NCBI GenBank assembly: GCA_032718475.1
Contig: JAUCBJ010007816.1
Span: forward strand, 1-64,000
Length of the DNA stretch: 64,000 bases
Reading direction: 5' to 3'
From: Nemertoderma westbladi
Lineage: Eukaryota > Animalia > Xenacoelomorpha
Both the position numbers and the translations under genes were made by a program. Numbering within the stretch: position 1 is the stretch's first letter; each line of letters opens with the position of its first letter. Under the pieces are notes generated by a model. That model was not told the origin of the DNA. It made no database searches and worked only from the letters and a program-made list of their open reading frames with translations. Of this stretch, positions 8,735 to 42,949 are shown piece by piece.

Positions 8735-10933
8735 TGATAAACAACCGCGACCTCTATACTAACAGCAGAACTGTTGAACAGACCAATACCCGTTAATATC
8801 CTTCTGCCAACCTAATAAGTTCTCGTCTAACCAATAAGACACAAAGACTGCTCTACTGTTAAGTAAAGGGGCTCAGGAGCGTGATATTACTAAATTGTAA
8901 GGGTTGCTAAATACAAAACCGCTACTTACCGTTAGATGGCGCTAATCTGCCGTCCGCTAATATATTTACTAATTTTACACAACTCCTGCAAAATCGCTTG
9001 TTCCTTTCTCTACCGATTGCTCAATAGAGAGCTAACTGTTCGAATCTATGAGCCACGCAGGAATAACCAAAACAATAAACCCGAGTCGGCTCCCTAAGCT
9101 TACTTAAGACGAGTGCGAGAGGCCTTGCACTCAGAGTATTCTTACGCCTAATTCTATCACTATTAAAGCACGCTATTACCTACGTCTTTTCTAATCGCGA
9201 ATACTGGGGGTTCTCTAACGTAATGTGTGAATGCGAGAATATTTAAAATATCAAAAATGGTACAGTAATTGTCTCTCGTGGATAGTACCACTCTGGGTCT
9301 AAAATTGCCTGCAGCTGGCTTTAGGCCAGCAAATCACTAGCGTTTCGTGCGTACCGAATAGTGCGTTCTAGCTGATTGTCCGCTAATGCAAATAACCGCT
9401 CAGCGTGAATAGTTTACAGTACTCTTAATTATTACTTTAGCTACTCTCCGCTATGCTGCGTACTAATTCTTAATTTTACTAATTAATTACAGTCACAAAT
9501 ATTTAACAGCGTACTAATTACTAAGAGTTCCAGAATACGTAATTCTAATTTATCACGCAACAGGTTTCGCTAGTAATAGCCTAAATTGCCGTATTACTTT
9601 GACCTAATCAGTAACTAATTGTTGTAACTAAGAAATAGAAATCAATCAAAGAGAAAAGAGCGCCTACCTAAACATTCACAATCATAGGCACACTTCAGTA
9701 ACACACCAATCAGCGTCAGCAATCACAGTTCGCAATTATGCAGTTAACTACTGTATAGCCCACAATTATGCGACTCACTATTCGTACTACACGCTCAACG
9801 TTCGAAACGTTGTGATACGTGCAGGCCTCTCCCGGGTACATATAGGACTCCTAACTAACCTGATTCCCGCCCCCCTAATACTAAATAGAGACGAAACCTG
9901 GATCATCAGCCCCCTAATTACCGTACCGGCGATTGGTCTGCGTACCACAGCGTTAACTTCCCGACCGCAACGGTGACCCCACGCCAGCGTTGCTCGCTTT
10001 GAATCCTCCGCTCTCCCTTAGTCGCCCAACCCCCCGATGTGCCCACCGCCCGCTGGCGCCTTAGCCCTCCATTACGCTAATAGCTACCGTAGCGGCGCAT
10101 GCAAATCACAAAGTCTGACAGTCTCAGAAATCCCTTAGGATTATTGCGCAGGAAAGAATCACATAGAACCATTAATCAAAAGTAGAAATCATAGTTCAGT
10201 TGTAATTAGCAGTAATCGAAGGAATTAATTGAGAAACACAAGCAAGAGTAATCGCACTAGCAAATCATTTCAAGAAATTAATCAAATTGCAAAAATACTC
10301 TAAAATCCGTCAAAATTGAATAGAGACAGCTCAGCAAGTACAACAGCAGTGAAGGTTGAATCGATTGATAACAGGTAAGGCTCTACCGGCACACCGCCAA
10401 TTTATAGGTGATCCGGATGGGATGATGCAATAGGGTGACTCAATCGCTCTCCTATTGGCTCTCCAGTCCATGCTAGCATTAGACCAACCTGGAAGCAGTT
10501 AATCCAATAAGGAGGCCGGATTGTAGCCCTATTGCTCAAATTATTACCATATATGGTAATGGTTCACGTCTCTGGCTGCTGAATGGCCAGGACGGCGTCC
10601 CTATATGCTAGCCCTATCAAACTAATATCAGCAAGCACAAAATCCAGGGTCCGAATAAACTCGCTACCCTGGAACTATCTACATATATCCTAATACAAAA
10701 TTACGTAGGTAGGGCTACATACTATACAAAATGGATGGTTTCAAATATATGGGCGTTTTGATTTCCCTACCTAAATACCACTGCGTTATTATGCCTTATC
10801 TAAAATATCATGCTGCACAATGGACTAATATTACGTACAGTATAACGGACTAATATTGCATACTGCATAACGGACTAATATTACATACTGCATGATGACT
10901 AATAATATGGATACAGCGCCATATACTGTAACA
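8735..10933 (-). repeat. 5' LTR of A1 (~2.2 kb, TG...CA)
   Basis: Aligns to both A2 LTRs; ends ...GTTGTTTATCA on the minus strand. Confidence 0.9.
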
Positions 10934-14629: not shown

Positions 14630-15420
14630 TAATTTGACAAATTTTGGTGCTAGCACCAAATTTCGTACCCATCACCAAAAAGTAAAAGTTTGCGATGTCA
14701 GTGCTGTTTTTATTGATTCCATCGGATTCAGGACCCTCATAAACCCGTATAACGCAAGAAACAAGGTGATACTATCTACTTATCAATTTGCATATTTTCC
14801 AAAATTTGGTGCTGGCACAACAATTTTCACCCACCGGCGAAAAATACAAGTTTGAGAACTTTTATGAAATTTTTACTGATTCCATTGATTTCAGAACCAT
14901 CACAAACCCGTATAACGCAAGAAACAAGGTGACACAATCAATTGATATATTTGATGGTTTCAAAATTTGGTGCTAGCACCAATTTTGCACCCACATCCGA
15001 AAAATACAAGTTTGAGATGTCTAGTTCGATAATTATATTTTCCATTGAATTCAGAACAGCCATAAACCTCTAAAACGCAAGAAATAAATTGTCACAAGCA
15101 ATTTTATCTATTGAATGGATTTTCAAATTTCGTGCTAGCACCAAAATTTGCACACAGCACCGAAAAATGCAAGTTTGGTGCAACTCGTATATATTTCATC
15201 GAATCCAGAACCTCCAAAAAAACCCCAATTGCGTAAAAAACAAGTTTCAAACAATCAATTTACAAATTTGATTTATTTCAAAATTTGGTGCTGGCACTAA
15301 AATTTGGCACCCATCGAACAAAACAAGTTTGAAATTTCTAAATCAATTTATATGAATTCCATCCAATTTCTAACACCAAAAAACCGGTGTAAATCAAAAG
15401 TAGAGAAGTTACAATTCATA
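14630..15420. repeat. About five degenerate ~160-bp units, each with an AAATTTGGTGCTAGCACCAAATTT-like palindrome
   Basis: Palindrome variants near 14640, 14801, 14962, 15125 and 15280. Confidence 0.8.
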
Positions 15421-15436
15421 TTTAATGAAATGTAAT

Positions 15437-17254
15437 TGAAGCGAAGAGACGTACCTGATATCCTGCAATATCCTACTGTAAAGTTTGTGAATCAAAACAT
15501 AATCCGACCTTCTCACCAAAACAGTAAACTCTAAGTAAGCGAATCTATTGCAGTATCGGTCTCTTATAACCGGTGAGGCAGAAGACAGTCTACGAACGGA
15601 CAAACTTCGATAAAACAAAATCCCGCGCAGCGAATCCTAAAATCGGGCTGACTCACTGACGGACTAAGGGCGCTCGTATACTTTGCCGCGGTGTGATTTA
15701 TATGTGGGTGAGAGATAGAGGCGCTAGCTAGATGTCTAACTAGCGGGCAAAGTGCAGTACGGACAAAATTTTTTTATATATTTTGAGGTGTAAATAATTC
15801 CTAACGCGCGTGTGTCTTGATTCTAACAGTCAAAATCAGTTTTAGATCCTTCATATATATAATTACTAGGTCCGGTGTGCATTTTACAAATATTCTAATT
15901 TTATAGCTTGTAGGTCCAATACTCACGAATGATAAGGCTCCTTCCCCTTTTGTGTATTTCCAGGACTCAAATTCAGGCATAAGGTTAATACTACGCCCGG
16001 AATTCGGCAATTTAATTTTCCAGGTCCCTAATACTAAGAAGAAATGTGTTAGTTTACTACAGTAGGCATACAGTTACAAAATAGCTAGCCTGGCGTTCTA
16101 TCTAGAATTTTGGTTGCCTAGGTGGGCACGGCAACTCCCTATCAGAATGTCGGCGGGGACACGGTAGATGTTAGTATCCCTAATAGCCTCAATTTATATG
16201 CGCCTAGCAGTAAACTGCCCTACCGTCTGAACGGTACAATCCCAATTCAGGTAAAAACACAGTAACCCTTCCTGGCCTACAAGTTCTAATGCAAATGGAC
16301 ACCGTTGTACTACAAACAGCCACCGACGCACCTATACCTGGCAAATGAGTTAGGCGTACAGCTTGCTGCACCCTACTAATGTGTATGCCTTGTACTGGTG
16401 TGCCTGTGTCCTATCTGTGTACTAGTATCTCTCTGCCTGATCTCTTCCTCCCCCATAGGAATATGAAGGTCTAATGCGGGTTTTTCTGAATTGAGACAGT
16501 ACAGTCCCTAAATGTAATTTTAGCGCACAGCGTGTCAGTACCTCTACCTTCGATCTTAGGTCTTTCGCTTAGGTAGCAAGGCATCGAACGCTGTCTAACC
16601 TTTCAGGCGATGGGCGAATACCGATGTTCCCGTCTATTGCCGCTATCCGATGTCTAGCCTGCCATCTGTCTCTCAGTTGTGTTCACCGTGGTGAAACATA
16701 GTAAAAGCAGATGTAACAAATACTTTCTAACTTTATTACAAACAAATGATAACTAATATACAATAAATGTAACAAGAAGATTAAGTAAGATAGAATAAGA
16801 AGAAGATAACTAATGAACAAAATCGCACCTTTTATAGCAAATTTGTGCTGCTAACAATCTAGATAAATCTCGATTGTTCTATGAGTTCTACTAGGTTTTT
16901 AAAGATAATCATTGGTCCAGCAAACACGTATCTTGCACGACATTGGTTGCTATCTAATAACTGCAATCGCATTGGTTAATCTACCTTAAGCAGATACAAT
17001 TAATTTGTAGCGGTTAATTCAAATGAGTTGAAACTTAGCACAAAAAATAATTCACACTTGCTAGGATTCGAACTCGATACCTACTACACGAATTTCTAAC
17101 GCTTAACTGACTGAGCTACTGAACCACTTGAATAATCGTTGTACAAATAGATATAGTAAATACAAATGAGGACTTAATGTAATCTTTATAGCAAATTAAT
17201 TCGAACAAAATAAAATTTTGAAAATCCACGGCTTTATGAGGATATAATTCTATA
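15437..17254 (-). repeat. 3' LTR of B (1818 bp, TA...CA)
   Basis: Matches 30714-31134 + 45422-46684 + 48839-49033. Confidence 0.92.
17053..17125 (-). promoter_or_regulatory. tRNA-like Pol III A/B-box cassette inside the B LTR
   Basis: TAGCTCAGTCAGTTAAGCG (TAGCTCAGTTGGTTAAGCG in the other LTR) and GAGTTCGAATCC, followed by a T6 run. Confidence 0.6.
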
Positions 17255-17959
17255 CCGCTCCATGAAAACAGGATATTATCGTGCATAAAATATACGGTTT
17301 TCACCAATACTAAATCAAATTATGGAGTACTTGGGGCGTACTTACATATTTACAAATTAAATCTCAACAATAATACCTTTACATAATAATTCAATACAAA
17401 TAATTACAAATTCAAACTTTACGTATTTAAGGCTTTATTAAGTAAGTACAATATAAATCTAAATTAAATTCACCAATATAAATCTATTGCATCTCAAATA
17501 TTGCATAAATTCAAACAATCACAAATACAAATGCTACCTTTATATAAAATAAATTGCATAAGTTCGGAATAATTTCAAATGAAATCACAAGGAAGGCTCA
17601 CAAGTCTTCCGTCTGCTCTTGCCTTTTATTTACTGCGAATACAAATACTGCTTCTTTATAAAATATAAATTGCATAATATCCGAAACAATAAATTGCGTA
17701 AGTTTGGAATGACTACAAATATAACACTTTCTAAATATAAATCTTTCTAAATTATAAATCTTTCAGAATATAAATCTTTCAAATATAAATTGCATAAGTT
17801 TGGAACAATACAAACTCGCATAAATTGAAACAATATAAACTTGCATAAGTTGAATAATCACAAATATAAATATACGCTTTCAAAATATAAATTCTTTCAG
17901 AATATAACGCTTTCTAAATACAAAACTTCTAAATACAAAATATATAAATCAAATAAATC

Positions 17960-19516
17960 ACAAGAAAGGCTCACGTGTCTTCCATCCACCCTTGCCTTCC
18001 AGTTTAGCGTTTTGTAGATTGAGCACGCCCGCGTCCTCGAAAACTGCGTATAGGCGACTTGGCTCGTACTGCAGGGCTTATGGGGCGAGTCACTGGTTTA
18101 CCTTGGACGTTGGGAGACGGTGCGACCATTTCCTCACAAGCTCGCCTTCTAGTAATTCCAAATCCTCATCCAACTCCTCGTGACCGATTAGTTGTATCCA
18201 TCGTTGGCAAAACGTCTGGGAACGCGCGGGAAGCGGACGACGCAGACCCAAGAGAAACTTGTGCCCCCCTTTGATCAACTGGTATGTGTCCTAGTCCTCC
18301 TTGCGGTTCTCTGGGAAGTGATACCGTATCTCGAGTAACTCGAATAGTCGGTTCATATCCCCTTCGTTCTTCAACATTTATAGTTTTCTTTAGTTGTTGG
18401 CTCACTTTCTGAACCCTTATAATCCTATTCTGTCCGTCCTCCCGAGGGTGACGTGCAGACGGCGCAACCGGAGTAGCTGGTATGTTGGTCGCCTCTAGGA
18501 TCTCCTCTTCCTTGAATACGCTCGCTCGTATACGTTTGTGATAGAAGGCGGCTCGGTACGCCCATGCGATGGTTAACCAAGATCCCTTATATCGCTTTTC
18601 CGTTCGGAAACGATCAAATTCACCATATGTGATACGATTAAACATTTTGGGCAAAGTTTATACTTTCGAAAATTTCCGGTGTCATCTCCTTAGCTGAAGT
18701 TTGATCGTGTGACGTCCAATGGTAAGGTAGGCTCGCGAGTCTTCCGCCCCATTCTTCCATCTCACCTTTCACGAAAGCCTTATAGGCTCTGTATAGGCTA
18801 AGAGCTTCTTTCTTTTCGCGGGTTGACTGAGTCACCTCTTCCAGCGTAAGTTCAAATGCATCGGGTTCAACAATCTTAGGTGGGCAAACGACAATTTCTC
18901 CCGCCTTTGGTCCACACATAGCAAATGAATGATACGGATTCGATAAAGGATACCCTCCTTCCTGGTAGCGTAGTTGTTGATGGTTCGAACACCTTGCCAA
19001 TATCGGTTCGGGATTTTCCTTATTCAAACGCATCGGAATCGCCTTTTGTTGTTCGCGCATACAAGCACCACATTGATAATAAAGTTTGTAAACTGAAAAG
19101 GCTTCCTTCGTTTCTCTATCATCTCCTCGAGTTCGTCTGTAAAGATGCATTCCATCGAATTCATCACGTACCGCAGGCATAGGTTCATGTGCCTTCAGGT
19201 ATTGCATGGTATGATACAAACGACTAATTTCGGTATTGGGGTCTTCACTGATATCTCCCGTATCACATAAAGCATCGTACGGATAAAGTTCATTGAAGGT
19301 TTTGCGCAAACTTTCGATTCTTTGGTTTAGAGCGTTCTGCCTCCTCTTTAACACCGTCGAGTCATATTTAGTTTTAGCAAGTTTTGCTGTACTTTCTGAT
19401 AAATCCTTTATTCCGAATATGGTATAATCCTTTGCACCAAATCTTTCGAATGGCGCTGCTGCTTCCTCTTGGATATCATATCCCCATCTCGGCTCTCCAT
19501 GTATCCCTTTCGCCAT
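17960..19516 (-). pseudogene. Extra ORF (ORF3) of element B, unknown protein, frameshifted
   Basis: ORFs 18638-19624 (ATG at 19516), 18166-18654 and 18090-18278 overlap end to end between integrase and the 3' LTR; CGAC...CSNH motif; no hydrophobic transmembrane stretch. Confidence 0.65.
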
Positions 19517-20180
19517 TATTGGAAGTATGGTTACATAATCATTACTACTAGAGGGAATACAACAGAGTTTATTGTTAGTAATGAGGAGATGTGAGAGTTT
19601 TCGTCTGCCCTTTTGGCTCGACAACGCTCTAACCTCCTACCCATAGCCTAAGATCTAGGGTTTCTTTAATGACACGCTGTTTCTTATCTAAAATTTTTGC
19701 CGAAATAAAAACGAATTTGGGCTAAACTGGCTGTGAATCTAAAATTCTCACTTTTTGATCCCAAACTATTATCAGAAAATAAGCAATCGAGAGTTAGTAA
19801 TAAATATAGGGAAGTCTATTTGTTGACGTAACTTTTGAAACAAGACCGTGTAAAATTTAATTAAAATTTAAGAAAGGCTCGCGAGTCTTCCATTCTCTTG
19901 TTTCTCTAATTTTAAGTCCCACCCGACTGTACCCTGAAATCTATTCACTGGAGAAAATTTTTTTAAAAATTTTTCAAATCCAAATGGATTGTCTAAAATT
20001 TCGAAAATGTCTCAATATTGTGAGTTCCAAGTAGAATTCCATTTCTTATACCTACAAATCCCGCTCCTATGTGACACATAAGGGTACTACCCTCAATGTT
20101 CACATATAAAGACAATGGAATTCTACCGCTGTCTTTACTACAGTGTACAGGTACGTGGAAATCTATTTGTAAACTCCTTA

Positions 20181-23100
20181 CTATTTACTAACATTAGTTG
20201 GAGACTTGTAATCTCCAGACTCGTTTCGAGTCTCTTCAAGAAGTACGAGACGTTGAGTCGGTCTGTCTACTGTACGACCGTCAATTGTCCGTACCGTCAC
20301 AGTTCTTGTCACTCCATCCATAGATGGATGTGTGTCTAAAATAACACCTGTTATCCAGAAGCGTCTTTTTAAATTCACTTCTGCCAACAGCACGTGATCT
20401 CCTGGCTTTAAAGCGCGAGTATTGTTGTACCAAGTAGTTCTGGCAGAAATAGAGGGCAAATAATGATTTTGCCATATTTCCCAGAATTGTTAGCCAGTAG
20501 TTGCGTGATTTTCCACGCTTTTCTACCATAGCTATCGCTTTCTATTGGAATAGAAATAGGCATTAATGAAGTCGGATTAGCAGGTGTGCCGGTGTTAAAG
20601 CAAACTGGGATTGTTTGTCATCGGGTACTAATACTATTGGTCTAGTATTTAGTATTGCCTCGATTTCAACAAACAATGTGGTCAGTTTGTCGTCTGTCAA
20701 GATGTGGTTTACTGGAATTACTTTTGCCATGCATGGCTGTTTTTATAGATCTAATCAATCTCTCCCAGACTCCGCCTCTCCATGGACTATCTGGAGGATT
20801 AAACTTCCAAACAATCTTGTAAGGACGTAGTTCATTTGAGATTTGATCATGATCTAATTTCTTAAAGGCTCTAGCAATTTCATTTCGAGCACCAACAAAG
20901 TTTGTACCTTGGTCTGAGTACAAGCATTTTACTAGTCCGCGTCTAGCGATAAATCGCCGCAATGCTAGTATAAAAAAAGCGTTGGTGGAAAGATCCATCA
21001 CTCGTTCAATATGAACTGCCCTACTGGACATGCATGTGAAAATCAGTCCCCAGCGTTTTACTAGTATACGTCCACGTTTCGTATGTATGGGACCAAAGCA
21101 GTCAATTCCAGTCTCTGTGAAAGGTGGTCTGAATGCCTGTAGTCGTGCTTGTGGAAGTTCACTCATTTCTTGGGTACTTATTCTAGAATGTACCTTTTTA
21201 CAAATAATACACATGCGCGTCACCGAACTTAGCGCTTTACTGGGTCTAATTAATACAAATCTTGTACGTAAGTAGGAAAGACAGTGGTGTCTTCCAGCGT
21301 GTTTCAGATGTAAATGTGCGTCCAGTATCATTGCACATTGTAATTCGTGATGTTGCGGTATTATTATTGTGTACCTAAAATCAGTATTAAAGTCGATGTT
21401 TTGAAGCCGAGATTTATGACAAATTAAGCCATTATAAATTATCGGACTCCAACTCAATATTGGTGACGACTTGATTGGTTGACCTTGACTTATGGATGTG
21501 AATTCGTGTGCGAAATATCGCAATTGGTAATGGCGAATTAATTTAATTTCACATCTGTCAATCTCAGTCAATGTTAGTCGACGTGTAAAGTCGCGTTTGC
21601 CTTTAACGTATTGTACAAAACATATAATCCACGCTAATTTTCGGCACGCGTTTGTCCAAGAATCTGTCAGATTTACAATACGGTCGACGTAAGTATTTAT
21701 GACGTCATCAGGTAAGTCAATGATGAATTTTGAAGGTTTTGTTTTACTAGATGGGCCCACGGGTCCGCCGGTAAGTATTCCCTTGTTGACTGTTGATCCG
21801 TCCGGGTCTACGAGTAATTTGTCCTTCTTCGTCTTCTTACCTTGATTATCAGTACTTTGTGAGTCGATTCCTAATGGTGGTTTTAACTCTATGGGGTCAC
21901 TGGGTTTCGGTAAATTTATTTTTCTGCCGATATTTATCCCAGGTCTCACCGTAGGTTGTAAGGTTGGTATGTCTCCTGAGCGTAAAGTAACACCTGTATT
22001 TACATTTGCGTAGGTACTACCCACATCTGTAATACATGAGGTTTCACTGTACTTATGGTTACTCAAGAGTGTCAAATTTGGTATTTTGTCAATAGAAGGC
22101 CGCTCCAATAGGGAAACTGCGGCTTTACTATGTGTCACTACATTACTAATGTCTGGTAGAACATCTTGTGAAATGTCTGGTAAAATGTTTCGCGGAACAT
22201 CTGGCGAAACATCTAGTGACATGTCTGGCAAAATGTCTGGTTGAGCGTCTGGTAACGTGTCTGGTTTATCGTCTGGTAACATGTCTGGTTGACCGTCTGG
22301 CGATACGTCTGGTTGAGAAAGGCTCGCAAGTCTTCCTGTCTTAACTTTGTAAGTTATGTTTTTCCATTTCGCCTTTGGTTTCTTCTTAAGTTTCGCCGTT
22401 GTCTTTTTCTTTGCTTTACCTTTCTTTGGTTTTTTAATTTCGGCGTCCTTAGGAATAGTGTTAGACTTGTTATCGTATAGTGGCGGCCAATGTTGCGTTG
22501 CTCTTTGTAAGAATTGTGGTCCGTGTTGCCAAAATTCCTTGTTTTCCGGTTTACAGAATTCCTCGGGCATCATTCCTCGCGACGCAATATCAGCTGGGTT
22601 TTGTGGTCCGGGACAATGTCGCCAATCTTCTTTTATTGAACGGTCTAGAATTTCTGCACGACGGTTGGCTACAAATGTCTTAAATTCAAGTGTGTCGTTG
22701 TTTATATAAAATAAAACTAACGTCGCGTCAGTCCAATAAAATATCTGTAAACTTGACTGTAGTTCAGTCTGTATAAGGTTTACAATTGTCGTTGACAGAG
22801 TTGCGGCTTGTAGCTCAGCGCGTGGTGTCGTCATGTACTTAGTAGGCTTGGAAGTAATGAGCGAAACATCAAACTCATCTGAGTCTACTTGTCTGCGCAA
22901 ATACGCTGTCACTCCAAAGCCGTTGTCACTGGCGTCGGAAAAACAATGTAATTCTAAGTTGTCAGGAAATGTCGTCTGTAATGGAAAATATACCCGGGGT
23001 ATGGAATAATCTTCTAGTGAAGACAATTGCGATTCCCAAGTTTTCCATAAGTCTACTTGTTCGAATGAGATCGGTTCGTCCCATGTCAGTCCATCTTTCC

Positions 23101-23920
23101 AAATACTGCGCATGTATATTCTTGCTTGCAGTATTATTGGGCTGATAAAACCTAATGGATCGAACAGTCTACTTAGTTTTGACAAGCAAGACCTCTTTGT
23201 CAGAGAATCTCCTTGAGCGTCCAGTCTTACCTTCACTCGAAAGTTGTCTGTGTTCGGATCCCAAAATAGTCCCAACACCTTGGTCGTTGGTAGTGGTTCG
23301 AATTCCAAGTCAATGTCACCACCCCCATGTTCAGTCGTTTCGAATGAATTTACTAATTCGGTACTGTTCGAAGCAAACTTGGTGAGGTTAAAACCTCCGC
23401 CTGCCAAACAGTCCCGTAATTGATGTGCTACTGTTATAGCACGTTCTACTGTGTCGCAACTTTGTAATCCATCGTCAACGTAAAAGTGTCGTTCTACTAC
23501 TTGGATTACCTCTGGGTCATACTTATGTTTCCAATCCCTAGCGGTCTGCTTTAGGGCGTACATAGTGCAATTTGGGCTGTCTCTGGCACCGAATACGCGA
23601 ACTTGCATTTGGTAAGTCGCCGGTGGTTGACTTAAGTCCCCATCCGGGTACCAGAGGAACCTCAAACTGTCTCTGTCTCGCTCTAACGCTCGCACCTGGT
23701 GAAACATGGCTTCGACGTCGCAAGTAAATGCTACTTGGCGTTGACGGAAGCGCATAATCACCCCCATGAGATAATTATTCATGTTTGGTCCATCCATCAA
23801 CTCCGTATTGAGAGACATTCCCTCAAACAGAGCCACGCAGTCGTTTACTACACGTACCTTGTCTGGTTTGTCGGGGTGTCTCACGTAGTGATGTGGCAAA
23901 TAGTATGTCTGGTCTGTCAC
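20181..23920 (-). pseudogene. pol: B pol: RT, RNase H, integrase and C-terminal DUF5641-like tail
   Basis: YYLPHH, FYVDD, HCFSDAS, FYWTDA, H...H...CIIC, TGIDCFGP, YSDQGTNF, GGVWERL; frameshifts near 20690; tail LKPGDHVLL...RPTQRLVLL. Confidence 0.92.
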
Positions 23921-25113
23921 ACGCTTTCGTCCTTCTGGGCTCCTCCCCGAGGCGCACCCACAAGGCGGACGTGTTTCCACCACCCTGGGGGCCGGTGACA
24001 AACCAAACCAGGCCGCAGGGTGGCCCGATGCTTCCCGGGTTCTGTTTTCGGTCCCCCGATCACACCAGCACAGCTCGTCGAACGTGTAGCCAGATGGGCG
24101 GCTACTGTCAACTTACTGTGGCCTGACTGTACATTGAGCCAACTCAAAGTATAACAAAGAGTCAACCCGCAGGTGGACCAGTCGATAGCGATCGAGCACC
24201 AAGGTCGCCCTTGGGCCTAACCGACGGTCTTGTCCCAAGCGGGCTTGCGCTACCCAACATGGAATTTTGACTCGTTTTCACCTGCCTCACCGGCAGTATT
24301 GAGGGGAAATAAGTTCCGCAAACAATACTGACTAGCTCGAAAGCTAGAAACAAGTAACCACTTACCAGTCACTGTACACGTGTACTCAACAGATGTTCAC
24401 GAAATCAAGTACACAAACGGTAAGCACAAAATCGAACACATACCATGCACACACAGAAGACATAATCGGGAAAGACAAAATCGGTGTCAAAATCGAGAAA
24501 GACAAAATCGGAGGGGACAAAATTGTATCAACTCATAAAGAGTCGAGAGTACCTTATTTTGCTGTCAGGGCAAAATAACTTTGTGTGCACAAAGTATGCT
24601 GGGGCGCAGTAAAGTATGGTCCTACTAATACCAGCGGCGTCTGGACCAACTGGCAAGGGTTCCCATACTCACTCGCAGTGGCCACACATACAATCACGTG
24701 TACTCACGTACCCACAGCAACAGAAAACTCAAGACCCGAACAAATCCCAAAGACCAATCAGCTGACATGGAGACAATAACATATAGTATCAAAAAAACGG
24801 AACAGCTGATGGCCAAAGGAACCCATCCAAGCCCCAAGCAAACTGCCACTGATCGCCCACATACAAAACATAGTTCACGCCACATGAGCCACAAATCACG
24901 CCATTGCACCACCCCTACTGTGTACAGGACTGGCAGTACGGCAACAGGCCGACTAGACGGTACCACGGCACCATGGCAATTCATGGTTCGTTAGACACGA
25001 GGGCCTTCAGTGACTCCCTATCACTATATTACCAGATTTAATGTGCCCCCAGACCCTCACGAGTCCGCCGCCGCCTGTTAGAGACACCCCTATAGAGACC
25101 TCACCTCTTTCGG
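23921..25113. mobile_element. Unclassified 1193-bp insertion in the B RT
   Basis: Removing it joins ...TNPEI|VTDQTYY, collinear with A (...EDPDL|VTDQTYY); no TSD, TIR or credible ORF. Confidence 0.75.
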
Positions 25114-28100
25114 TATCTCTGGGTTTGTCATTCTGATAGCGTACCCCTTCGTCAAATACGTTTCCATCTGTGTATTATACTGCAGATGGGCTTTCTCATC
25201 CTTTAGTAAACGTTGTCTTATTGAGTTTAAACGTCTTAAGGCTAGCGGATAATTATTTATAAGTTTAGGACGTTGGTTACGCCATAGCATCCCTTCCTCA
25301 TAATGTCCGTCTTTCATCTGATGGATAGTATCTTCCATGATCTTTAAGGATTGTTTTTCTTGTTCCGACATACATGGTTCGTAACTACCAGGTTCGGCTG
25401 TGTCTTGTTCCAACCACTTGATAGTTTTCTCTGTTAATTCTTTGTCCAGTGCAGCTTGTTCCACTTGACAATTCCTTAATGTGTCGACATCGACAGGTGT
25501 TGATAAGGTTATTGGTTGAGGTAGACTCGCAAGCCTTCCGGCGTTATCATCTATCGTTGATGGATCATCTGCCTGATGCGTCTCCTTCTCAATCTCTGAA
25601 CTTACCTTTTTGTAAAGTGGTTTCTGCTCCCTTTGACTTGTTGTACTTGCCACACATTTCGTACTTGTCACTTTGTTGTGTTTTGTCGAATTTCGGTGTG
25701 TAGTATAGTCAATGTCGTTTGAAAGAGAATGAGTCAAAGTTGTAGTTAATAAACTACATGTACTTTGCACATCATCTTCCTCATCACTTATATCTAGTGT
25801 GCGCACAGGCGCTCGAGTATACCATCCTATCGGCGATCTGCAGGCGTATGCATTTCCTGCTACGACTACCGATGGTCTGGTTTCCCACACTTGATGTAAG
25901 TTGAATTGGTCTGTCCCGATCAGCATTGTTACTGACCTATAATTAACAGGACATTCAGGTACACCAAGGTGTCTAAAATACTTACGGTCCTCCAAGGATT
26001 GTTCTGGCACTGGACCCAGTAGGTTACTAAAGTCCTTTGTGGCTGCAAAGGTTAAATCCTTAAAGGGTAACAAAGACCTCTCCTTTTCGCTATGTTGCGA
26101 TTTCGGAAGAAGAGTCTCTAAGTTCAACTTAACTCTTGTCACTGGTATTGCACGTTGTCCATGCATACTACTTACGGTATAACTGACGTGCTTACCTTGT
26201 TGAAGGTCTGTGACGACGTCAGCTACCTTCTTGTCCACATAGCTGTGAGATGAGGCTGAATCCAAGATAGCGTAGATCCGTTTGCTCCCTTTTGTGCCTG
26301 TAATCTTAACAGGAATTACGCTAAATCCCTTTAGTTGATCAGGCGTCAGAAGCGCAATCGATGGTTGTTCGTCCCCAGTGTTGAAATATGCGTCGTCGTC
26401 TTCCGACTCTTCATCCGACGACCCGGATTGTTCTGGGAAACAATCCCGTATATGCGTCACGAAAGTTGGTGTTGTTCTCGATTCTCGATTCTTGTATGCA
26501 GTATTGCATTTCGCTGCTGCTTCTGGGTGTTCCCTAGTGAAGCGTTTTGTCGGCGTATGACTATCCGTGTGGAGCAAACCGTCATGGTTGCGTCCACAGG
26601 AAGGACAGGTGTCTGTATTTGGGCAATCCTTGCGAACATGTCCGTGTTGCGTACACTGCCAACAAGAATCAAATGGCCGTATCTGTAGCCGTCGTTCTTC
26701 CGAGTTTAACTCACGAAATAGCCGACAACCTCTTAACTTGTGACTAGTATGCCGCTTACCTAACTGCTCGCAGTATTGGCAACCGCTAAAGTCGGCACTC
26801 AGTTGCTGCCTGGTCTGTTTGATCCCAATAGGTGCAGACACTTTACTACCGTCGGAAAATTGTCGGGTTTCTGTCGGTGTGGCGTAGGTGGCCGTCCTTG
26901 TGGATGGCGTCGGTGGTTTTTGTCGGTTGGATGATGGTAAGGTGATTCCTTCTGCTACAATGTGTTGGTCTGTGTAGTTAGAACGAGTCTCCACCACTGC
27001 TTCCCTAGATATTAAAAGGTACACATCCTCCAATTTCAAAAATCCACCCCTTTCTTCTCGCTGATATTCGATCTTCCTCCACTCCCTACGAAGTCGATGG
27101 TGTAATCTCCCTATTATTTTTAATAGGACTGTAGGAGTGTTTCCGTAATCAAGTTGTCCAATTGATCGTAATGTCGTTCTTGATTTCATCAGCTAATTTC
27201 AGTAAGTCGACGGGTTTCGTAATAGCCCCCCCTTTGCAGAGTTCCTCTATTACTGACTTGGCCATACTTACCGTACCTCCATAAATGGAAGTTAAGCGAT
27301 CGTATGCTAATTCGAAGGCGTCTGGTACACCGACAAAAGTCTCTGCTAAACGTTTTGGTTCTCCCGTCAGCGTTTGAAGCAGGTAGTTAAACTTTTCCCT
27401 CGATGTAAAAGCGCATGCCGCAATTTGAGATTCGATGTAATCCACGAAGGTATGCCAATGTTTTGAGTTTCCGGAGAACTTTGGTGGTTGCTGCGCCGGT
27501 AATCCTTGTCTGGCTGCGAATTTAGCTATCTCTTCTGCAACATTCAAAGTTTCGCGTCCCTGGGTAGCAATAGAGTTCGTTTTTCCCTGTCCAGGACATC
27601 TTTTCTTATACTCTACATTCCCTGAAAGTATATCCTTTTGCGGATGCTTCGGGTGTCTAGTATGTTCGAATTCCGTGTTTCTCGAACTATCAGTTTGAAC
27701 TTCCTCTAAGCGTTCCTCGATCTGGGCCAACTTGTTAACAACTGGTCGCATTATGTCGGCTAATTGTTGCGTACTAATTGCGTCCGTTGGTTGTAACGCT
27801 TTCTGTGTTGGTGTATTTTGTGGAGGATTATCTATAAAGGAATTAGTTGAACGCTCGCGTTTGCATTCATCGGCCGCTCCTGTTCTAAACACCTCGCATT
27901 CCGGGTAATCCGATTCGCTCGAAGTACTACTATCACCTGGATACGGTGGCCGACGTGCTCGCGTCCGTTGGGTTGTCCGAATTCTAACATTCCGTTTAGA
28001 AACATCGTCTACTGGTTTCCGTTGTTCGGTAGGCTCGCAAGTCTCCCTCGAAGTCGTAGATTGCGATGTAAACTGGTAAAACGGTCGCGTGTCTACTGGT

Positions 28101-29904
28101 CTCCGTTGTTCGGTAGGCTCACAAGTCTTCCTCGAAGTCGTAGATTGCGATGTAAACTGAATCCGTGGTCGCGTAATGGCGTTTGAGTCTAACGGCCTTG
28201 AAGGCCTGAATACGATTGGGTTTGCGTAGTGTGTCACAGGTTTAGGTGTCGAAGGTTGACTCACCTGTTTAGTCGTCATTAATGTAGGTCCGACCAATAA
28301 ACTACTACGATTGGTAATTGGCGGGTTACTTACCTGAACTTTCGGAATAGGCGATGACGTTGCTCTTGGCGGTATAAACTTATCCGGAATAATGAACCTG
28401 TGATCCGTCGCATCATGTATAGGAGATATATTACTACTACCCGCAATCGAAACAGGTTCTTTGGTCGTAATTGATGCAAACATATGAGTTACTTGAGGAA
28501 ATCGTTGACATAATTCACCAACCAGCTCTCATCCTCGCTCAGGTGCTCCTACACTTCCTTCCTTTATTTGTTCCTGAATTTGGCGGTGCCTTACTTCTAT
28601 CCGGTCTAGATCGTGTCCGTCTCGAGATCTCATCGATCGATCGCGGGCTTTAAGATCCAGATCTTCCTTGGCGTTAGCTAATTCTCTCGCCTTCCTTTCG
28701 AGTTCGAAATGAAGTTTAACCTCTTTCTCGCGTTGTTCCGTTTGTTGTTGTTGTGCCTCTAACTCTGCTAGTCGTATGGCTGATTGAGCCTTTATTTGCC
28801 GTTTTTTCATTTCGGCTCTCGCTTCTGAAACTAACCTTTGTCGCTCTAACTCAGCCGCTGCCGCTGCCGTTTGTCGCTCTAACTCGGCCGCTGCTGCTGC
28901 CGCTGCCGCTTGTTGTGCAATGTCCAACTCTAACCTTTCCATCTCGGCTGCTTCCAACTCGGCTTGTTCTTGCAGATGAGAGATTCTCGCAACATTCGCA
29001 ACGCGTAGTTTCTCTTCCTCTACTGCTGCTTGTACCATTAACAGTTGAGTTTGTTCCTTCATCTCCTGTTGTTGTCTGTAGAACTGCTGCTGTTGTCGAG
29101 CAATTTCTGACGTTACAATACTCACCTCGCCAATTTCGCTGCGAATACTCACCAATGATTGATCCATTATTCCCGGTGCCAGTTCGATTTGTGCGTGTGA
29201 AGTTTCCCTCGTAGCCTCCGGCACGGTTTCCCAATCTCCGACGTCTTCGCCGCACATACGTAAGTGATCCGTCAGATGTTTCAATTGTCCATCCAGCCTA
29301 TACAATTCCTGTTCTTCCTCGGGCTGTAATAACTCGTCGGAAACTGACTCACCTAGCAACTGGTCCGCTTGTTCCTGCTGTATCAGTCTAACGGTCGTCT
29401 TAAACTTAATCAGTTTCTAAGCTCCATCAGGATTCTAAGCTGAGTGTCTGAGTCCTGTCTTTGTCTAGCTAGATCTTGTAGACTGATTAGGTTATCTACG
29501 GACTTATGTACTTTACTTTGTACTCTAACCTGTAGGGTGTAAAACTCGAACCGAGACATCGGAGCGGTCAACTCGTCTAATATGCGTTGGCCTTCTCGAA
29601 TACTCCTGGTAATATGCGCCATGTATCCTCCGACGCTTCTAACTACGCTCTCTTGGCTTCCTACTGAACTTACCATGTCCGTTTCCCTGTGTCTAGGTTG
29701 CGGGACCGTTAGAAAATCCTCAGTCCTGCCGTCGCCTCATACTACAGCATCCGGTACTCCCGTTGGATGTACTGGTGACGCACACGGTGTAGGTTCGGTA
29801 GGCTCGCGAGTCTTCCCCTGTGGTTCTTCCGCTACTGACTTATCCGCGTCACATGAGTCATAGTCGGTAGGTGTATTCTTCGTATAGTCCTGTTTGTCAC
29901 TCAT
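25114..29904 (-). pseudogene. gag: B gag-protease with stops and frameshifts
   Basis: ATG at 29904; ORF pieces 29410-29676, 28529-29359, 27149-28483 and 25090-27189; PPKFSGNSKHWHTF, zinc knuckles, protease ILDSAS. Confidence 0.9.
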
Positions 29905-30713
29905 TTCGGTAGTTGTAAGTCAAGTAAAGTGAGTGTCAAAGTATCAAACTTACCGTATTTATATCTAAACGGTATTAATTACAGTCATATAAAATTAGCC
30001 TACCGGCCGATTTTATAGCAAATGGATAAAATTAGCCTAGCGGCCAATTTTACAACAAATAAATGTCACGGAGTAAGTATAATAAAATTAGCCTGGCGGC
30101 CAATTTTATAACAAATAAATCGGATAACGATATACGTTATCAAAAGGTAGATTAAATACAAATAATTAACGGACTAGTTCAGCAATAAACAAAGAAATCG
30201 TACGGAATGCATAAATGCTTGAGACAGTGGAACCCACAATAATTTTAACTAATACGGTAATGCCTAACTGATTTATGCAACTTTTCGAACTCACCCCCTC
30301 CAATAATTCTCCAGAAAAACAGATTCCCAGATACAAACCGGACGTGAACCTTTCCGTTTCCAGCGTTGTGGACGAAGTGCGATTTTCCCAACCAAAGTTG
30401 TTGAGTTATCTATCTCCCAAACTTGCGAAACACGGTCTTGCTCTCGTTACAGTCTAGAAATGAGCTCTGAATCCTGAAAAACAAAAGAGTTCGGTTTTAC
30501 TTTTACGAAAAATTTTGTACCGGTACAATATGGTATTTAAACCCTTTTAAACACCGGTATTCAATTCCAAATATTTTACACGCGGTTCAAATCAAAATTT
30601 TATTTCAAAAAATTAGCACTTAGCTAATCAAATACAAATTTTTACCTCAAAATACAAAATTTCAAATAATTTTTAGTCCTACTGAACCGTAGTTCAGTAA
30701 AACATATTCCTAC

Positions 30714-31134
30714 TGAAGCGAAGAGACGTACCTGATATCCTGCAATATCCTACTGTAAAGTTTGTGAATCAAAACATAATCCGACCTTCTCACCAAAACA
30801 GTAAACTCTAAGTAAGCGAATCTATTGCAGTATCGGTCTCTTATAACCGGTGAGGCAGAAGACAGTCTACGAACGGACAAACTTCGATAAAACAAAATCC
30901 CGCGCAGCGAATCCTAAAATCGGGCTGACTCACTGACGGACTAAGGGCGCTCGTATACTTTGCCGCGGTGTGATTTATATGTGGGTGAGAGATAGAGGCG
31001 CTAGCTAGATGTCTAACTAGCGGGCAAAGTGCAGTACGGACAAAATTATTTTATATATTTTGAGGTGTAAATAATTCCTAACTCGCGTGTGTCTTGATTC
31101 TAACAGCCAAAATCAGTTTTAGATCCTTCATATA
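30714..31134 (-). repeat. 5' LTR of B, U5-side piece
   Basis: Matches 15437-15857; cut by A2. Confidence 0.92.
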
Positions 31135-33310
31135 TGTTACGGTATATGGCGCTGTATCCACATTATTAGTCGTTATACTGTATGCAGTATTAGTCCGTTA
31201 TGCAGTATGCAATATTAGTCCGTTATACTGTACGTAATATTAGTCCGTTGTGCAGCATGATATTTTAGATAAGGCATAATAACGCAGTGGTATTTAGGTA
31301 GGGAAATCAAAACGCCCATATATTTGAAACCATCCATTTTGTATAGTATGTAGCCCTACCTACGTAATTTTGTATTAGGATATATGTAGATAGTTCCAGG
31401 GTAGCGAGTTTATTCGGACCCTGGATTTTGTGCTTGCTGATATTAGTTTGATAGGGCTAGCATAGGGACGCCGTCCTGGCCATTCAGTAGCCAGAGACGT
31501 GAACCATTACCATATATGGTAATAATTTGAGCAATAGGGCTACAATCCGGCCTCCTTATTGGATTAACTGCTTCCAGGTTGGTCTAATGCTAGCATGGAC
31601 TGGAGAGCCAATAGGAGAGCGATTGAGTCACCTTATTGCATCATCCCATCCGGATCACCTATAAATTGGCGGTGTGCCGGTAAAGCCTCACATGACACAT
31701 CGATTCTGTTCAACCTGTTTTACTGTTTTTCAATCTGTCACTGCTGTTGAGCTGTCTCTAATTTTGTATTAGGATATCGTATTTTCTGCAATTTGCTAAT
31801 TTGATTAATTTCTTGAAATGATTTGCTAGTGCGATTACTTGCTTGTGTTTCTCAATAATTCCTTCGATTACTGCTAATTACAATTGAACTATGATTTCTA
31901 CTCTTTGATTAATGGTTCTATGTGATTCCTTTCTGCGCAATAATCCTAAGGGATTTCTGAGACTTTCAGACTTTGTGATTTGCATGCGCCGCTACGGTAG
32001 CTATTAGCATCATGGAGGGCTAAGGTGCCAGTGGGCGGTGGGCGCATCGGGGGTTGAGCGACTAGGAGAGAGCGGAGGATTCAAAGCGGGCAACGCTGGC
32101 CAGGGTCACCGTTGCGGGCGGGTATCTTGCACTGCGGCACGCAGACCAATCGCTGGTACAGTATCTAGGGGGCTGATGATCCAGGTTTTGTCTCTATTTA
32201 GTATTAGGGGGGCAGGAATTGGGTTAGTTAGGAATCCTAGATGTACCCGGGAGAGGCCTGTGCGTATTACAACGTTGAGTGTGGAGTACGAGTAGTGAAT
32301 TGCACAATTGTAAACTGTGATTTCTAACGCTGATTGGTGTGTTATTGAAGTGTGCCTAAGATTACGAATGCTTAGATAGGCGCTCTTTTCCCTTTGATTG
32401 ATTTCTATTTCTTAGCTACAATAATTAGTTATTGATTAGGTCAAAGTAATACGGCAATTTAGGCTATTACTAGCGAAACCTGTTGCGTGATAAATTAGAA
32501 TTACGTATTCTGGAACTCTTAGTAATTAGTACGCTGTTAAATATTTGTGACTGTAATTAATTAGTAAAAATTAAGAATTAGTACGCAGCATAGCGGAGAG
32601 TAGCTAAGGTAATAATTAGTGTACTGTAAACTATTCATGCTGAGCGGTTATTTGCATTAGCGGGCAATCAGCTAGAACGCACTATTCGGTACGCACGATA
32701 CGCTAGTAGTTTTGCTGGCCTAAAGCCAGCCGCGGGCAGTTTTAGACTCGGGGTGGTATTATCCACGTAGAAACAGTTACTGTACCATTTTTGATATTTT
32801 AAATATTCTCACATTCACACATTACGTTAGGGAACCTCCAGTATTCGCGATTAGAAAGACGTAGGTAATAGCGTGCTTTAATAGTGATAAAATTAGGCGT
32901 AAGAATACTCTGAGTGCAAGGCCTCTCGCACTCGTCTTAAGTAAGCTTAGGGAGCCGACTCGGGTTTATTGTTTTGGTTATTCCTGCGTGGCTCATAGAT
33001 TCGAACAGTTAGCTCTCTATCGAGCGATCGGTAGAGAAAGGAACAAGCGATTTTGCAGGAGTTGTGTAAATTTAGTAAAATATATTAGTGGACGGCAGAT
33101 TAGCGCCATCCAACGGTAAGTAGCGGTTTTGTATTTAGCAACCCTTACAATTTAGTAATAGCACGCTCCTGATCCCCTTTACTTAACAGTAGAGCAGTTT
33201 TTGTGTCTTATTGGATAGGCGAGAGCTTATTAGGTTGGCAGAAGGATATTAACGGGTATTGGTCTGTTCAACAGTTCTGCTGTTAGTATAGAGGTCGCGG
33301 TTGTTTATCA
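31135..33310 (+). repeat. 5' LTR of A2
   Basis: TGTTAC...TTATCA; direct repeat of 43245-45421. Confidence 0.93.
31605..31666 (+). promoter_or_regulatory. Candidate LTR promoter (CCAAT and TATAAA)
   Basis: GCCAAT near 31607 and TATAAA at 31660-31665, conserved in all three A LTRs. Confidence 0.5.
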
Positions 33311-33321
33311 GTAATACGCGC
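33311..33321 (+). promoter_or_regulatory. Non-tRNA primer-binding-site position of A2 (GTAATACGCGC)
   Basis: Abuts the LTR end; complementary to 32260-32270 and 44371-44381. Confidence 0.65.
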
Positions 33322-34590
33322 TTTGTTTGCTGTAGGCTGTAGCGTACAGTAAATAGAGTATTCTTAGGCTGTTACTTTAGATTACTGATACTTCGTATCA
33401 GTAATACGCGCTATTGGCTGTTGCTTGCAGCGGTCAATAGAGTATTCTTAGGCTGATAGTAATATCATAGTATTAGGCAATAAATTGGAGCACGTGATCG
33501 TCTGCTGTAGGCTATAGGCTGGCGTACGGTAGAACATTAAGTATATTTATTCTATTAGGCTGTTAGTTTAGATTACTGTATTCACTGGCTGCGTACGATA
33601 GTACAGTAGTACATTAGGCTGATTGCTGTTACTGCGTACGGTAGAAAGGACATTTGTTTTGCCGTACCACACACAGTATCATTAGGCTGTTAGGTTGGTG
33701 TACTGTTTTACTTACTGTACTGCATACAGTGAATGTACGGTAGTGCGTTTTTGCTAATTGCGAATACAGCAGTTCCTTAGGCCTTAGGGCAAACTGTAAT
33801 TAGTAAGTTTTTTGAAAATTTTAGCTAGGTTTGCGAGAATTCAGTTTTCGGTCAAAATTATTTTGTAAAATTCTAGAGTTTTGTACCGGTATGTTAGGTA
33901 ACCGCTTAGTTATTTTATACCATCTGGAGATACATGGCAAGACGGAACTTCTGAGTTTGGGGTTCGTGTGGGTCTGCGGGTTCGGTTTGCAATCAGCGAA
34001 GGGCCTGAATCTTGGGACGCGGACGTGGAATCTCACAGCAAACAAGTTTAGTTGTTCTGTTGGCACCAGTGTGTTTGTGGAAGCAGTAAAAAATTATCGG
34101 TTGTTTAACTGCGAAGCTGAACTCAATTTATTAGTTAGGATATTTAGGTTTAGCCGGCCATGGTTTTGAATCGCTCAAGTTAGAGAGAGAGTTAGAGAGA
34201 GTCGCAATCCGAAGATGTAGCCACGCGCTAGTGGATACATATAATATTTGAAATTAAAATTACGTTGATTAGAGCTATATATATAAAATTAGAAATATTC
34301 GGGCGGCAAGTTTATTTGAATATTTTGTATTAGATTCAAAGTTATTTTGTGCTATACCGGTATTTAATACTATATAGTAGCTATATAATAATATTTTTGT
34401 TTAAATATTGTGCTAGTATTTGCTATAACTATATACCCCATTAAATTCACAATATTGCATTGCGAATTTATTTTGACATTTTGGACCAACTGATTATTTG
34501 ACAAATAATTTGACCGTGTTTCGGTTAAATTATAATTATATCTCGAACCTTTGCGAGATATTTTGCCGGAAGGCAAACATTATTTAGACT

Positions 34591-42641: not shown

Positions 42642-42949
42642 TGTATCTGGGAAGGGGACAAAAGAGAGGAGCGAGCCCAAAGAACCCAGGAGCGGGTCAA
42701 TAATACATTATGGCACAGGGCGACAGACTCTAGATATATACATCATCGTCGCTCTGATGTATATTGTAGCATTTGAAAATTTTCGACTAGACTCGTATAT
42801 ACTAGTTGAGTTATTTGAATTTATATTATGAAAGAGGCGAAGGAAGTGATTGGGGAGACAAACCTGCGGGTTTGGCTTACTCCTTTCACTTGCCCTAGCA
42901 AAATTTTTATATTTGATTTTGTATGTAGTAATCATTATGTAGTAAGAAT

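Follow-up and report, generated by a model that had tools for sequence, protein, structure and literature searches.

Two nested BEL/Pao elements

The analyzed window, 64,000 nucleotides of the Nemertoderma westbladi contig JAUCBJ010007816.1, contains a complete insertion of a BEL/Pao LTR retrotransposon, element B (15437-49033, reverse strand), recognized by self-BLAST, a 5-bp target duplication and the Pfam domains DUF1759, Peptidase_A17 and DUF5641. Its 3' LTR occupies 15437-17254, and its 5' LTR, in which element A2 and a non-LTR fragment are nested, consists of an inner piece (30714-31134) and a remainder at about 45425-46684 and 48839-49033, all on the reverse strand. A2 (31135-45424, forward strand) represents a sister family, A, with 60% identity to B in RT/RNase H; it is the sole complete A copy in the window and the only one that shows the 3' region. 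Both families display the hallmarks of BEL/Pao, namely, LTRs with a target-site duplication, the order protease-RT-RNase H-integrase, and the Peptidase_A17 and DUF5641 domains, and the Gag of each contains DUF1759 plus three zinc knuckles.

Element B has two further frames on its coding strand. ORF3 (18638-19636, reverse strand) comprises 332 open codons, giving 292 residues from the first ATG at 19516, and includes a C-x2-C-x23-C-x2-H pattern. The start of ORF4 (17958-18645, reverse strand) overlaps the ORF3 stop, and its frame is broken in the present copy. Homologues of ORF3 were found neither by word-indexed search nor by HMMER over 1.84 billion representatives, nor among PDB sequences or metagenome contigs, and no Pfam match exceeded the cut-off; the downstream frame of ORF4 gave no homologue either. 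A FLYWCH/WRKY-like lead for ORF3 had an Atlas score of 0.78, below the 0.9 bar, with predicted-fold pLDDT values of 36.5 and 34.6. ORF3 has no transmembrane stretch and thus is not env-like. In being extra genes between pol and the 3' LTR of an LTR element, ORF3 and ORF4 resemble CERV of Cer1 (PMC10309623), TRP28 of Retand (PMC11963269) and the env-like genes of BEL/Pao elements (PMC13524379), as these are described in the cited accounts, but they have no sequence match to any of them, lie in the sense orientation and have no shown link to the sites described below. A2 has no match to ORF3 or ORF4 and no frame above 88 codons between pol and the 3' LTR.

A dispersed near-palindrome in element B

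The sequence-only reading had described a 17-bp quasi-palindrome dispersed nine times through element B. All nine copies are present, with 0, 1, 0, 0, 0, 2, 1, 0 and 0 mismatches to the 17-mer in the order of their coordinates, and the 17-mer occurs nowhere else in the 64 kb within 3 mismatches. The symmetry of the motif held up and its length did not: the conserved unit measures 20 bp, starts 3 bp further left and consists of an 8-bp arm, a YGYG center and a second 8-bp arm, with two-fold symmetry over all 20 bp. The ends of the conserved unit are the ends of the dyad, and 6-8 of the 10 pairs are symmetric in B.

The nine B sites, all on the reverse strand, run from the 3' UTR to the beginning of gag. 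The site in the 3' UTR (17591-17610) is a duplicate of the one at 17964-17983, which covers the final codons of the broken ORF4 frame and is the most degraded of the copies. A third (18726-18745) is located close to the ORF3 end in the GRLASLP frame, and a fourth (19872-19891) in the pol-ORF3 spacer, where it is also found in contigs of three runs, whose common center is UGCG on the coding strand. The site in the RNase H-integrase linker (22317-22336) adjoins a 12-bp tandem array. In the protease-RT linker (25520-25539) the A·C apposition that is fixed in the other eight of the nine B sites is replaced by G·U, and the variable letters are exchanged between the two arms. Two sites in the gag linker (28028-28047 and 28112-28131) are copies 1 and 2 of an 84-bp duplication, as the sequence-only reading had noted; the single odd letter of the former is not present in contigs of three runs. 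The last site (29797-29816) lies in the gag N-terminal region in the KTREPT frame. Since the motif sits in the middle of the 84-bp unit, it is not a duplication breakpoint. Six of the nine sites fall inside gag, pol or ORF3 frames, at about one site per 1.5 kb, and two pairs (28028/28112 and 17591/17964) stem from local duplication.

A pattern scan of the B coding strand returned 10 matches against 0.12 expected and pointed to two possible weaker sites, one with A-like arms in a non-coding segment that interrupts RT (24160-24179, reverse strand) and one with an A-like center in the RNase H-integrase linker (21750-21769, reverse strand). A third stretch with B-type arms and a deviant center lies within integrase (21276-21295, reverse strand) and may be due to chance. 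No copy of the B motif in the window lies outside the internal region of element B: it is found in neither B LTR nor in the other 50.5 kb, and the first 0.9 kb after the 5' LTR contains no site. In a matrix built from the nine sites, their own scores are 29.6-35.0 bits, and the next best position in the window scores 7.5. A selection-aware test, which considers every 17-mer and records the largest dispersed family formed at up to 3 mismatches, gave 8 clusters for B versus 3-4 in all eight Markov-3 simulations. After collapsing of duplicates, the 7 canonical B sites are evenly spaced (P=0.036).

The motif translates as GRLASL and KT(R/C)EP, as had been stated. The sites use two reading frames in B and three in A, and two B copies are non-coding, which rules out GRLASL as a cleavage-site peptide. 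Furthermore, at 18 of 23 fourfold-degenerate positions the letter is the one also used by copies that are in another frame or non-coding, bearing out the earlier proposal of constraint at the nucleotide level. The element is most likely a cis-acting signal. Alternatively, the sites could be by-products of no function, arisen as short duplications and homogenized by template switching and palindrome correction. The two locally duplicated pairs and the site beside a tandem array are in keeping with such an origin, as is between-copy conservation that does not significantly exceed the flanks: A1, the other A copy, and A2 differ at 1/100 site positions versus 49/1500 in the flanks (P=0.16), and the 136 bp around the spacer site at 19872 include just 4 substituted places, too few for a conservation test. 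Against this, among the 34 non-duplicate B pairs the identity is 0.85 in the motif and falls to background, 0.27 and 0.26, in the 30-nt flanks; synonymous sites are held and spacing is even. Useless dispersed direct repeats would, moreover, be expected to invite deletion and vanish. Taken with the persistence of the design in family A, described next, these observations make a neutral origin very improbable.

A sister family with its own version of the site

The restriction of the motif to element B, implied by the sequence-only reading, proved wrong. A2 has six sites that share the architecture of the B sites but differ from them in arm sequence, all on the forward strand, five of them with a counterpart on the reverse strand in A1. 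They are located in the gag N-terminal region (34888-34907; A1 7229-7248), the gag linker (36444-36463; A1 5737-5756, with a CGCG center), upstream of the zinc knuckles (37776-37795; A1 4404-4423), where the innermost pair is altered on both sides, in the protease-RT linker (39065-39084; A1 3114-3133), in the RNase H-integrase linker (41307-41326; A1 877-896), where the 8-bp arms are perfect, and in the 3' UTR (42857-42876), where the outermost pair is altered on both sides. A 12-mer search with one mismatch had given no match in A. In a leave-one-out test of the A sites that relied on sequence alone, the omitted site or its reverse strand ranked first of 28,532 positions in 6/6 cases. The A sites are very evenly spaced (CV 0.20, P=0.0007), with none in the first 1.5 kb after the 5' LTR, and in both families the near-palindrome recurs roughly every 1 to 3 kb along the element. 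A motif-blind search for hairpin families found 5 in A and 8 in B, versus 1-3 and 2 in the respective simulations. The design has been kept although the proteins of the two families diverge by 40%, and in four arm pairs both partners have changed; this is hard to reconcile with neutral by-products.

The YGYG center is present in 14 of the 15 canonical sites of A and B, the exception reading CGCG in the other A copy. At the center both families show C>T changes and neither shows G>A, and the centers CACG, CGCA and TGCA are never seen among A and B sites. The polarity of the motif tracks the coding strand even though the two elements are oppositely oriented, with 6 coding versus 1 antisense matches in A2 and 10 versus 3 in B.

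The sites of both elements are placed in tolerant linkers and are missing from the LTRs.

Searches beyond the window covered several collections. Fourteen BEL/Pao loci from outside the window, several of them partial and together comprising 128,563 bases, showed nothing similar (covariance model best E 0.15), and the motif-blind search was at or near the simulation level in all 14, the 4 hits of one locus (L031) being terminal-repeat duplicates. Viral contigs contained no B motif, and BEL/Pao relatives were found in 0 of 82 viral candidates. Metagenome contigs yielded 26 single motif matches; none of these was accompanied by a pol match or by a further, separate motif copy at <=2 mismatches, and they are read as chance. 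No covariance model of Rfam 15 matched the stretch 15400-31200 at E values up to 1, and no tRNA or Rfam origin was found. The consensus sites of p53, SMAD, BANP and GCM, compared by eye, match parts of the dyad only.

ORF3 and the VANC parallel

The sequence-only reading had suggested that ORF3 binds the motif by analogy to VANC. In this scenario ORF3 or ORF4 would bind the B sites and counter silencing in the way that VANC serves VANDAL. The length of ORF3 marks it as a real gene (5e-8 for 332 open codons by chance), a contig aligned to it shows no gaps and 67 differences in 817 bp, and it has a possible zinc-binding pattern in addition to the weak FLYWCH lead; moreover, four of the nine sites lie within or beside ORF3/ORF4. 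VANC targets, as portrayed in PMC5735166 and PMC6719617, are likewise family-specific, in one orientation, partly multiplied by local duplication and accompanied by an accessory gene, and in the contigs motif-bearing units appear to have been gained or lost in the 3' UTR, as reported for VANDAL (PMC5735166). Family specificity, a single orientation and gain or loss by duplication are thus common to both. However, the VANC motifs of these accounts are 8-9 nt long, are not dyads, occur densely in non-coding tandem repeats and belong to DNA transposons under DNA methylation (PMC5735166, PMC6719617), and the sites described here differ from them in length, density and coding location. ORF3 is acidic, with a pI of about 6, and has no family, homologue or confident fold. 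A motif of the VANC kind would be limited to families with the accessory protein, whereas A2, a single copy and the sole case in which an association with ORF3 could be checked, has six sites and neither ORF3 nor ORF4; absence of such an association was what the sequence-only reading itself held to count against the link. An A subfamily with ORF3 may nevertheless exist elsewhere. Whether the sites act as RNA or as DNA, the parallel with VANC should not lead as a hypothesis, and we consider binding by ORF3 or ORF4 improbable. Of the two functions that had been proposed for the motif, RNA packaging or export is the better one, and the occurrence of sites in a family without ORF3 supports a reading at the RNA level.

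DNA dyads or RNA pairing

The sharp 20-bp symmetry, with symmetric invariant positions and an arm identity that exceeds what pairing requires, would suit a dimeric protein, shared by A and B and either Gag- or integrase-derived or of the host, that binds the sites as double-stranded DNA dyads, their spacing serving to keep the whole provirus open or to hold the cDNA complex together. The letter exchange at 25520 resembles an inverted DNA site, the B hairpins are weak, and the absence of sites from LTRs would spare such a protein titration by solo LTRs. There is also a mild CpG excess after insertion (LTR pairs 8/314 versus 11/1264, P=0.036; 9/21 listed changes, P=0.025), which hints at methylated copies and thus at silencing there to be resisted. 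On the other hand, CpG observed/expected is about 1, A1/A2 do not show CpG hypermutability (0.052 versus 0.046), and no DNA-binding domain common to A and B was found. A symmetric binder should, moreover, accept the same change in both halves, yet the center shows C>T and never G>A. Together with the covariation within A sites described below, this places DNA dyads on the unlikely side, although they are the main rival to the explanation favored below. If the sites were to act as DNA, they would form a regulatory array over the whole body of an animal LTR element, of which no description was found in the literature searched.

Of the 8 family-by-column cases with an asymmetry of the transition type, 7 read as G·U when the coding strand is taken (one-sided P=0.035, the tally being post hoc), and ordinary B substitutions are strand-symmetric, with 275 A>G and 281 T>C, and 202 C>T and 180 G>A, in run X1. 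Such G·U-type asymmetry on the coding strand points to RNA pairing. The A arms covary within sites, forming 40 of 48 Watson-Crick pairs versus 34.7 when permuted (P=0.011, weakening to P=0.069 with G·U permitted), and no within-site covariation was found in B (P=1.0). Quasi-palindrome correction during copying could imitate covariation without selection for pairing. In a joint alignment of A and B sites, 84% of positions are paired, a value reached in 0 of 500 shuffles, but this alignment comes from only two families and from a pattern that itself took pairing into account, and the count is thus not independent support.

Predicted self-duplexes range from -17.6 to -35.5 kcal/mol in A and from -8.2 to -25.3 kcal/mol in B, with a random mean near -8, and the coding strand gives the stabler self-duplex in 6/6 A and 3/9 B sites. 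Predicted cross-duplexes amount to -23.8 (A-A), -20.0 (B-B) and -10.5 kcal/mol (A-B), those of B being equal on the coding and the other strand (-20.0 versus -20.0). Local hairpins of B are weak, at -0.4 to -4.9 kcal/mol and with z close to 0 in 9/9 cases, and have an inner-pair probability <0.1 in 7/9 contexts, and in context a hairpin is predicted for 4/6 A sites (probability >0.6) and 2/9 B sites. Since B hairpins mostly do not form in prediction, a stand-alone hairpin agrees less well with the data than pairing between sites or between two genomes, or than docking of a protein. This bears on another possible role, in which the sites would serve nuclear export or germline transport, rather than packaging, as docking hairpins on the RNA, akin to Rev/CERV systems or localization signals. 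The strand evidence would apply equally to such a role, the four well-formed A hairpins agree with it, and the account of Cer1 indicates that an LTR element may need a dedicated export factor (PMC10309623). Nevertheless, docking would leave the self-complementary center unexplained, the B hairpins fail to form in prediction and A has no accessory gene as reader, so that we assign export or transport a low probability.

Proposed dispersed dimerization and packaging signals

The explanation that we favor, at somewhat less than an even chance, is that the sites are dispersed, family-specific RNA dimerization and packaging signals read with Gag. They would act on the genomic RNA, each site pairing over about 20 nt with another one, either of its own RNA or of a second copy, with G·U allowed also in the YGYG center; alternatively, the sites may fold briefly into hairpins. 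The zinc-knuckle part of Gag may assist pairing or folding, and pairing would compact and dimerize the long RNA. A need for mutual matching would keep the arms alike within a family while they diverge between families, and this divergence would keep the RNAs of A from pairing, or being packaged together, with those of B.

Known retroelement dimer signals gather at the 5' end. Dimerization of Ty1 and retroviral RNAs is described as driven by palindromes and kissing loops, and Ty1 PAL, SL1a-SL3a and the retroviral DIS are, like the present sites, short and self-complementary, Gag-chaperoned and coupled in dimerization to packaging (PMC5454406). These signals, however, are 5'-terminal and number one to three per genome in the same account (PMC5454406), whereas A and B have 6 to 11 sites, homogenized within each family and spread evenly over gag, the pol linkers and the 3' region; rather than lying in a 5' leader beside a packaging signal, they span the entire internal region. 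Packaging by dispersed, spaced stem-loops has been described for RNA viruses, and the signals of MS2 and of the HBV pregenome likewise are many short sequence-structure motifs along the genome, inside coding sequence, that have a recognition motif in common and for which spacing is important (PMC6281560). There, loop motifs on variable stems are read by an icosahedral coat protein (PMC6281560), whereas the sites of A and B combine a stem of conserved sequence with a self-complementary loop and are carried by an LTR retrotransposon. The RM boxes of Sireviruses, according to PMC2829016, are also symmetric, CpG-rich motifs repeated in a lineage of LTR retrotransposons, but they cluster in LTRs and upstream of env, whereas the A and B sites avoid LTRs and occupy coding linkers. 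An array of this kind in BEL/Pao was not described in the open-access literature searched.

We speculate that in this BEL/Pao lineage 20-nt RNA 'snap fasteners', set at even intervals along the genome and pairing with one another, took over from a single 5' dimer signal, so that the genome pair would be zipped and compacted without a dedicated protein, and that the arms would serve as a family barcode, set by concerted evolution, that blocks pairing, co-packaging and recombination between families; in this full form the proposal is unlikely. RNA choice and dimerization are understood for very few LTR retrotransposons, and the signals there are 5'-terminal. A family-specific, evenly spaced array located in coding linkers, in all three frames, would represent a different design. 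The co-residence of A and B with different arm sequences offers a ready-made test of specificity using short oligonucleotides.

Conserved dyad sites in element B

Element B, a BEL/Pao LTR retrotransposon, occupies 15437-49033 on the minus strand as a complete insertion with a 5-bp target duplication. The nine motif copies of the sequence-only reading were all found at the coordinates it reported, and they are well beyond chance, forming 8 dispersed clusters versus 3-4 in eight simulations and scoring 29.6-35.0 bits versus 7.5 for the next site. The conserved unit is exactly 20 bp and is bounded by the dyad ends (8-bp arm, 4-bp centre, 8-bp arm). Identity is 0.85 within the sites, against 0.27 and 0.26 in the 30-nt flanks and a background of 0.257 (34 non-duplicate pairs). 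At fourfold-degenerate positions, excluding duplicate site 28112, 18 of 23 letters are the commonest letter of the copies in other frames or in non-coding sequence, and it is very improbable that the sites are neutral. None of the nine lies in a block alignable to A proteins, and none within an LTR.

The read data are consistent with the window and make for a more uniform B family: contigs of three runs lack the odd letter of site 28028, and site 19872 has the common centre, UGCG, in read contigs; its surroundings there show 4 substituted places in 136 bp, too few to compare site with flanks. Contig joints and loose ends suggest that the 3' UTR of other B copies holds additional units bearing the motif; an ORF3-less deletion would be expected to leave a similar joint. 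In the linker between RNase H and integrase, a tandem array of 12-bp units (22148-22317) terminates exactly at a motif copy, and short tandem arrays also adjoin other copies in the 3' UTR; such arrays may have arisen through slippage of the polymerase at the motif.

Related sites in element A

The observation extends to the sister family A, which is 60% identical to B across 499 RT/RNase H residues. A listing of all dyad 20-mers revealed six sites of B-like design on the coding strand of copy A2 (31135-45424), at 34888, 36444, 37776, 39065, 41307 and 42857, and the second copy, A1 (1-10933), has counterparts of five. The A sites were recovered by leave-one-out matrices without any pairing rule and also by a blind hairpin-family search without any motif. 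They span all three frames, mostly occupy the linkers used in B, and follow one another at even intervals (1575, 1556, 1332, 1289, 2242 and 1550 bp; CV 0.20, P=0.0007); B spacing is less even than that of A (P=0.036, or 0.006 if two weaker A-like sites are included). All 17 aligned sites share C7, G10, G12 and G14, columns that are part of the search pattern used for A and A-like sites, and four arm pairs are changed on both sides between A and B.

Fourteen BEL/Pao loci of other animals (L027-L040) served for comparison; these are contigs in prokaryotic genome bins whose BEL/Pao pol most likely represents animal host contamination. Since none of the 14 has a comparable array, the array is a lineage feature and not a BEL/Pao rule. 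Literature searches, covering open-access main texts, found no array of this sort described for BEL/Pao elements.

RNA or DNA signals

Of the 15 canonical sites, 14 have a YGYG centre, and YGYG comprises the forms that remain self-complementary when G·U is permitted on the coding strand; mirror forms are absent. Counted post hoc, 7 of the 8 family-by-column cases of transition-type asymmetry are of the G·U kind (P=0.035), with no strand bias among ordinary substitutions. Within sites, the arms of A covary, at P=0.011 when Watson-Crick pairs alone are counted and at P=0.069 once G·U is included. These features count for the RNA level. By prediction, the stems of B are weak and in their sequence context mostly fail to form, and an A·C apposition is fixed in B, which counts against a simple hairpin; export or transport hairpins are an improbable explanation. 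By prediction, pairing between two sites removes part of the weakness of B stems: duplex means are -20.0 (B-B), -23.8 (A-A) and -10.5 kcal/mol (A-B), and random self-duplexes lie near -8, although in B the opposite strand pairs as well as the coding strand. From the anatomy of the sites, which is directly observed, we infer a mechanism in which one site would pair with another on the RNA, Gag would chaperone the pairing and the sites would let families A and B be told apart. That the sites are such dispersed dimerisation and packaging signals is our leading, still tentative, explanation.

DNA dyads bound by a dimeric protein shared by A and B would fit the sharpness of the dyad, the close identity of the arms and site 25520, with its swapped letters. 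The CpG evidence is mixed: the o/e ratio is close to 1 and A1 compared with A2 gives no excess, whereas LTR pairs give a threefold one, on 19 changes. We regard this explanation as rather unlikely, though the strongest competitor of dispersed RNA signals.

The closest mode of working among known systems would be that of Ty1 and retroviral dimer palindromes (PMC5454406), but the A/B sites are spread over the internal region, not placed in the 5' leader, and are not of this kind. Dispersed viral packaging signals (PMC6281560) resemble them in being multiplied; a hairpin is predicted in context for 4 of 6 A sites and 2 of 9 B sites. By analogy, the sites can be likened to dimer palindromes multiplied in the manner of packaging signals, belonging to neither.

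ORF3 and ORF4

ORF3 is a real reading frame. A contig with 8% divergence covers it without gaps, and it is the alignable portion of another about 18% divergent. It contains a C-x2-C-x23-C-x2-H pattern and gives a weak FLYWCH lead; no transmembrane stretch, homologue or fold was found. The proposal that ORF3 binds the motif, by analogy to the VANC proteins of VANDAL transposons, was not supported. A2 has six sites and no match to ORF3 or ORF4, and between pol and 3' LTR it has no frame >88 codons, being the sole A copy with a visible 3' region. Thus, sites in A2 do not require ORF3, which is an accessory gene. Compared with VANC (PMC5735166), the A/B sites lack two defining features, and there is little likelihood that they belong to an ORF3/VANC-like system. 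A fourth ORF (17958-18645, minus strand), broken in the window's copy and with no homologue found, starts at an ATG that overlaps the stop codon of ORF3, giving a stop-restart geometry.

Organisation of the elements

The window is an animal-genome repeat nest, the best RT relatives being cnidarian, mollusc and echinoderm BEL/Pao proteins (40-45% identity). The 3' LTR of B lies at 15437-17254 (minus strand); its 5' LTR, starting at 30714 (minus strand), is split by A2, inserted within it, and by a non-LTR fragment. More than 14,000 contigs of one read run (X1) map to the B internal region and every bin is very deep, so we read B as a many-copy family, depth not being equal to copy number. The non-LTR retrotransposon (46684-48838), which has an inverted relative near 57950-59300, is 5'-truncated and looks CRE-type and site-preferring; its 14-bp target duplication lies inside a tRNA-like stretch that is intact at about 17060-17120.

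The RT frame of B is interrupted at about 23900-25100 by a ~1.2-kb non-coding segment that has no counterpart in A and contains one A-like site. Because its read depth is similar to that of the remaining B, most copies seem to carry it. It may be an intron, as in plant Ogre elements, or a nested insertion.

No TGG-type primer binding site was seen after the 5' LTR of B or A. In both (B 30675-30713, minus strand; A 33314-33410, plus strand), the 5' LTR is followed by GTA and a strong hairpin with a UACG or UUCG loop. The 3' arm of the hairpin is a repeat of the LTR-end junction, with which the 5' arm can therefore pair, and the arrangement possibly indicates non-tRNA or fold-back priming. Repeats of 60 bp occur in a decayed gag-like region (about 50900-54000), one of them holding a weak dyad look-alike at chance level (52902), and tandem arrays of 19-bp and 63-bp units occur at 55056-55950 and 57031-57751.
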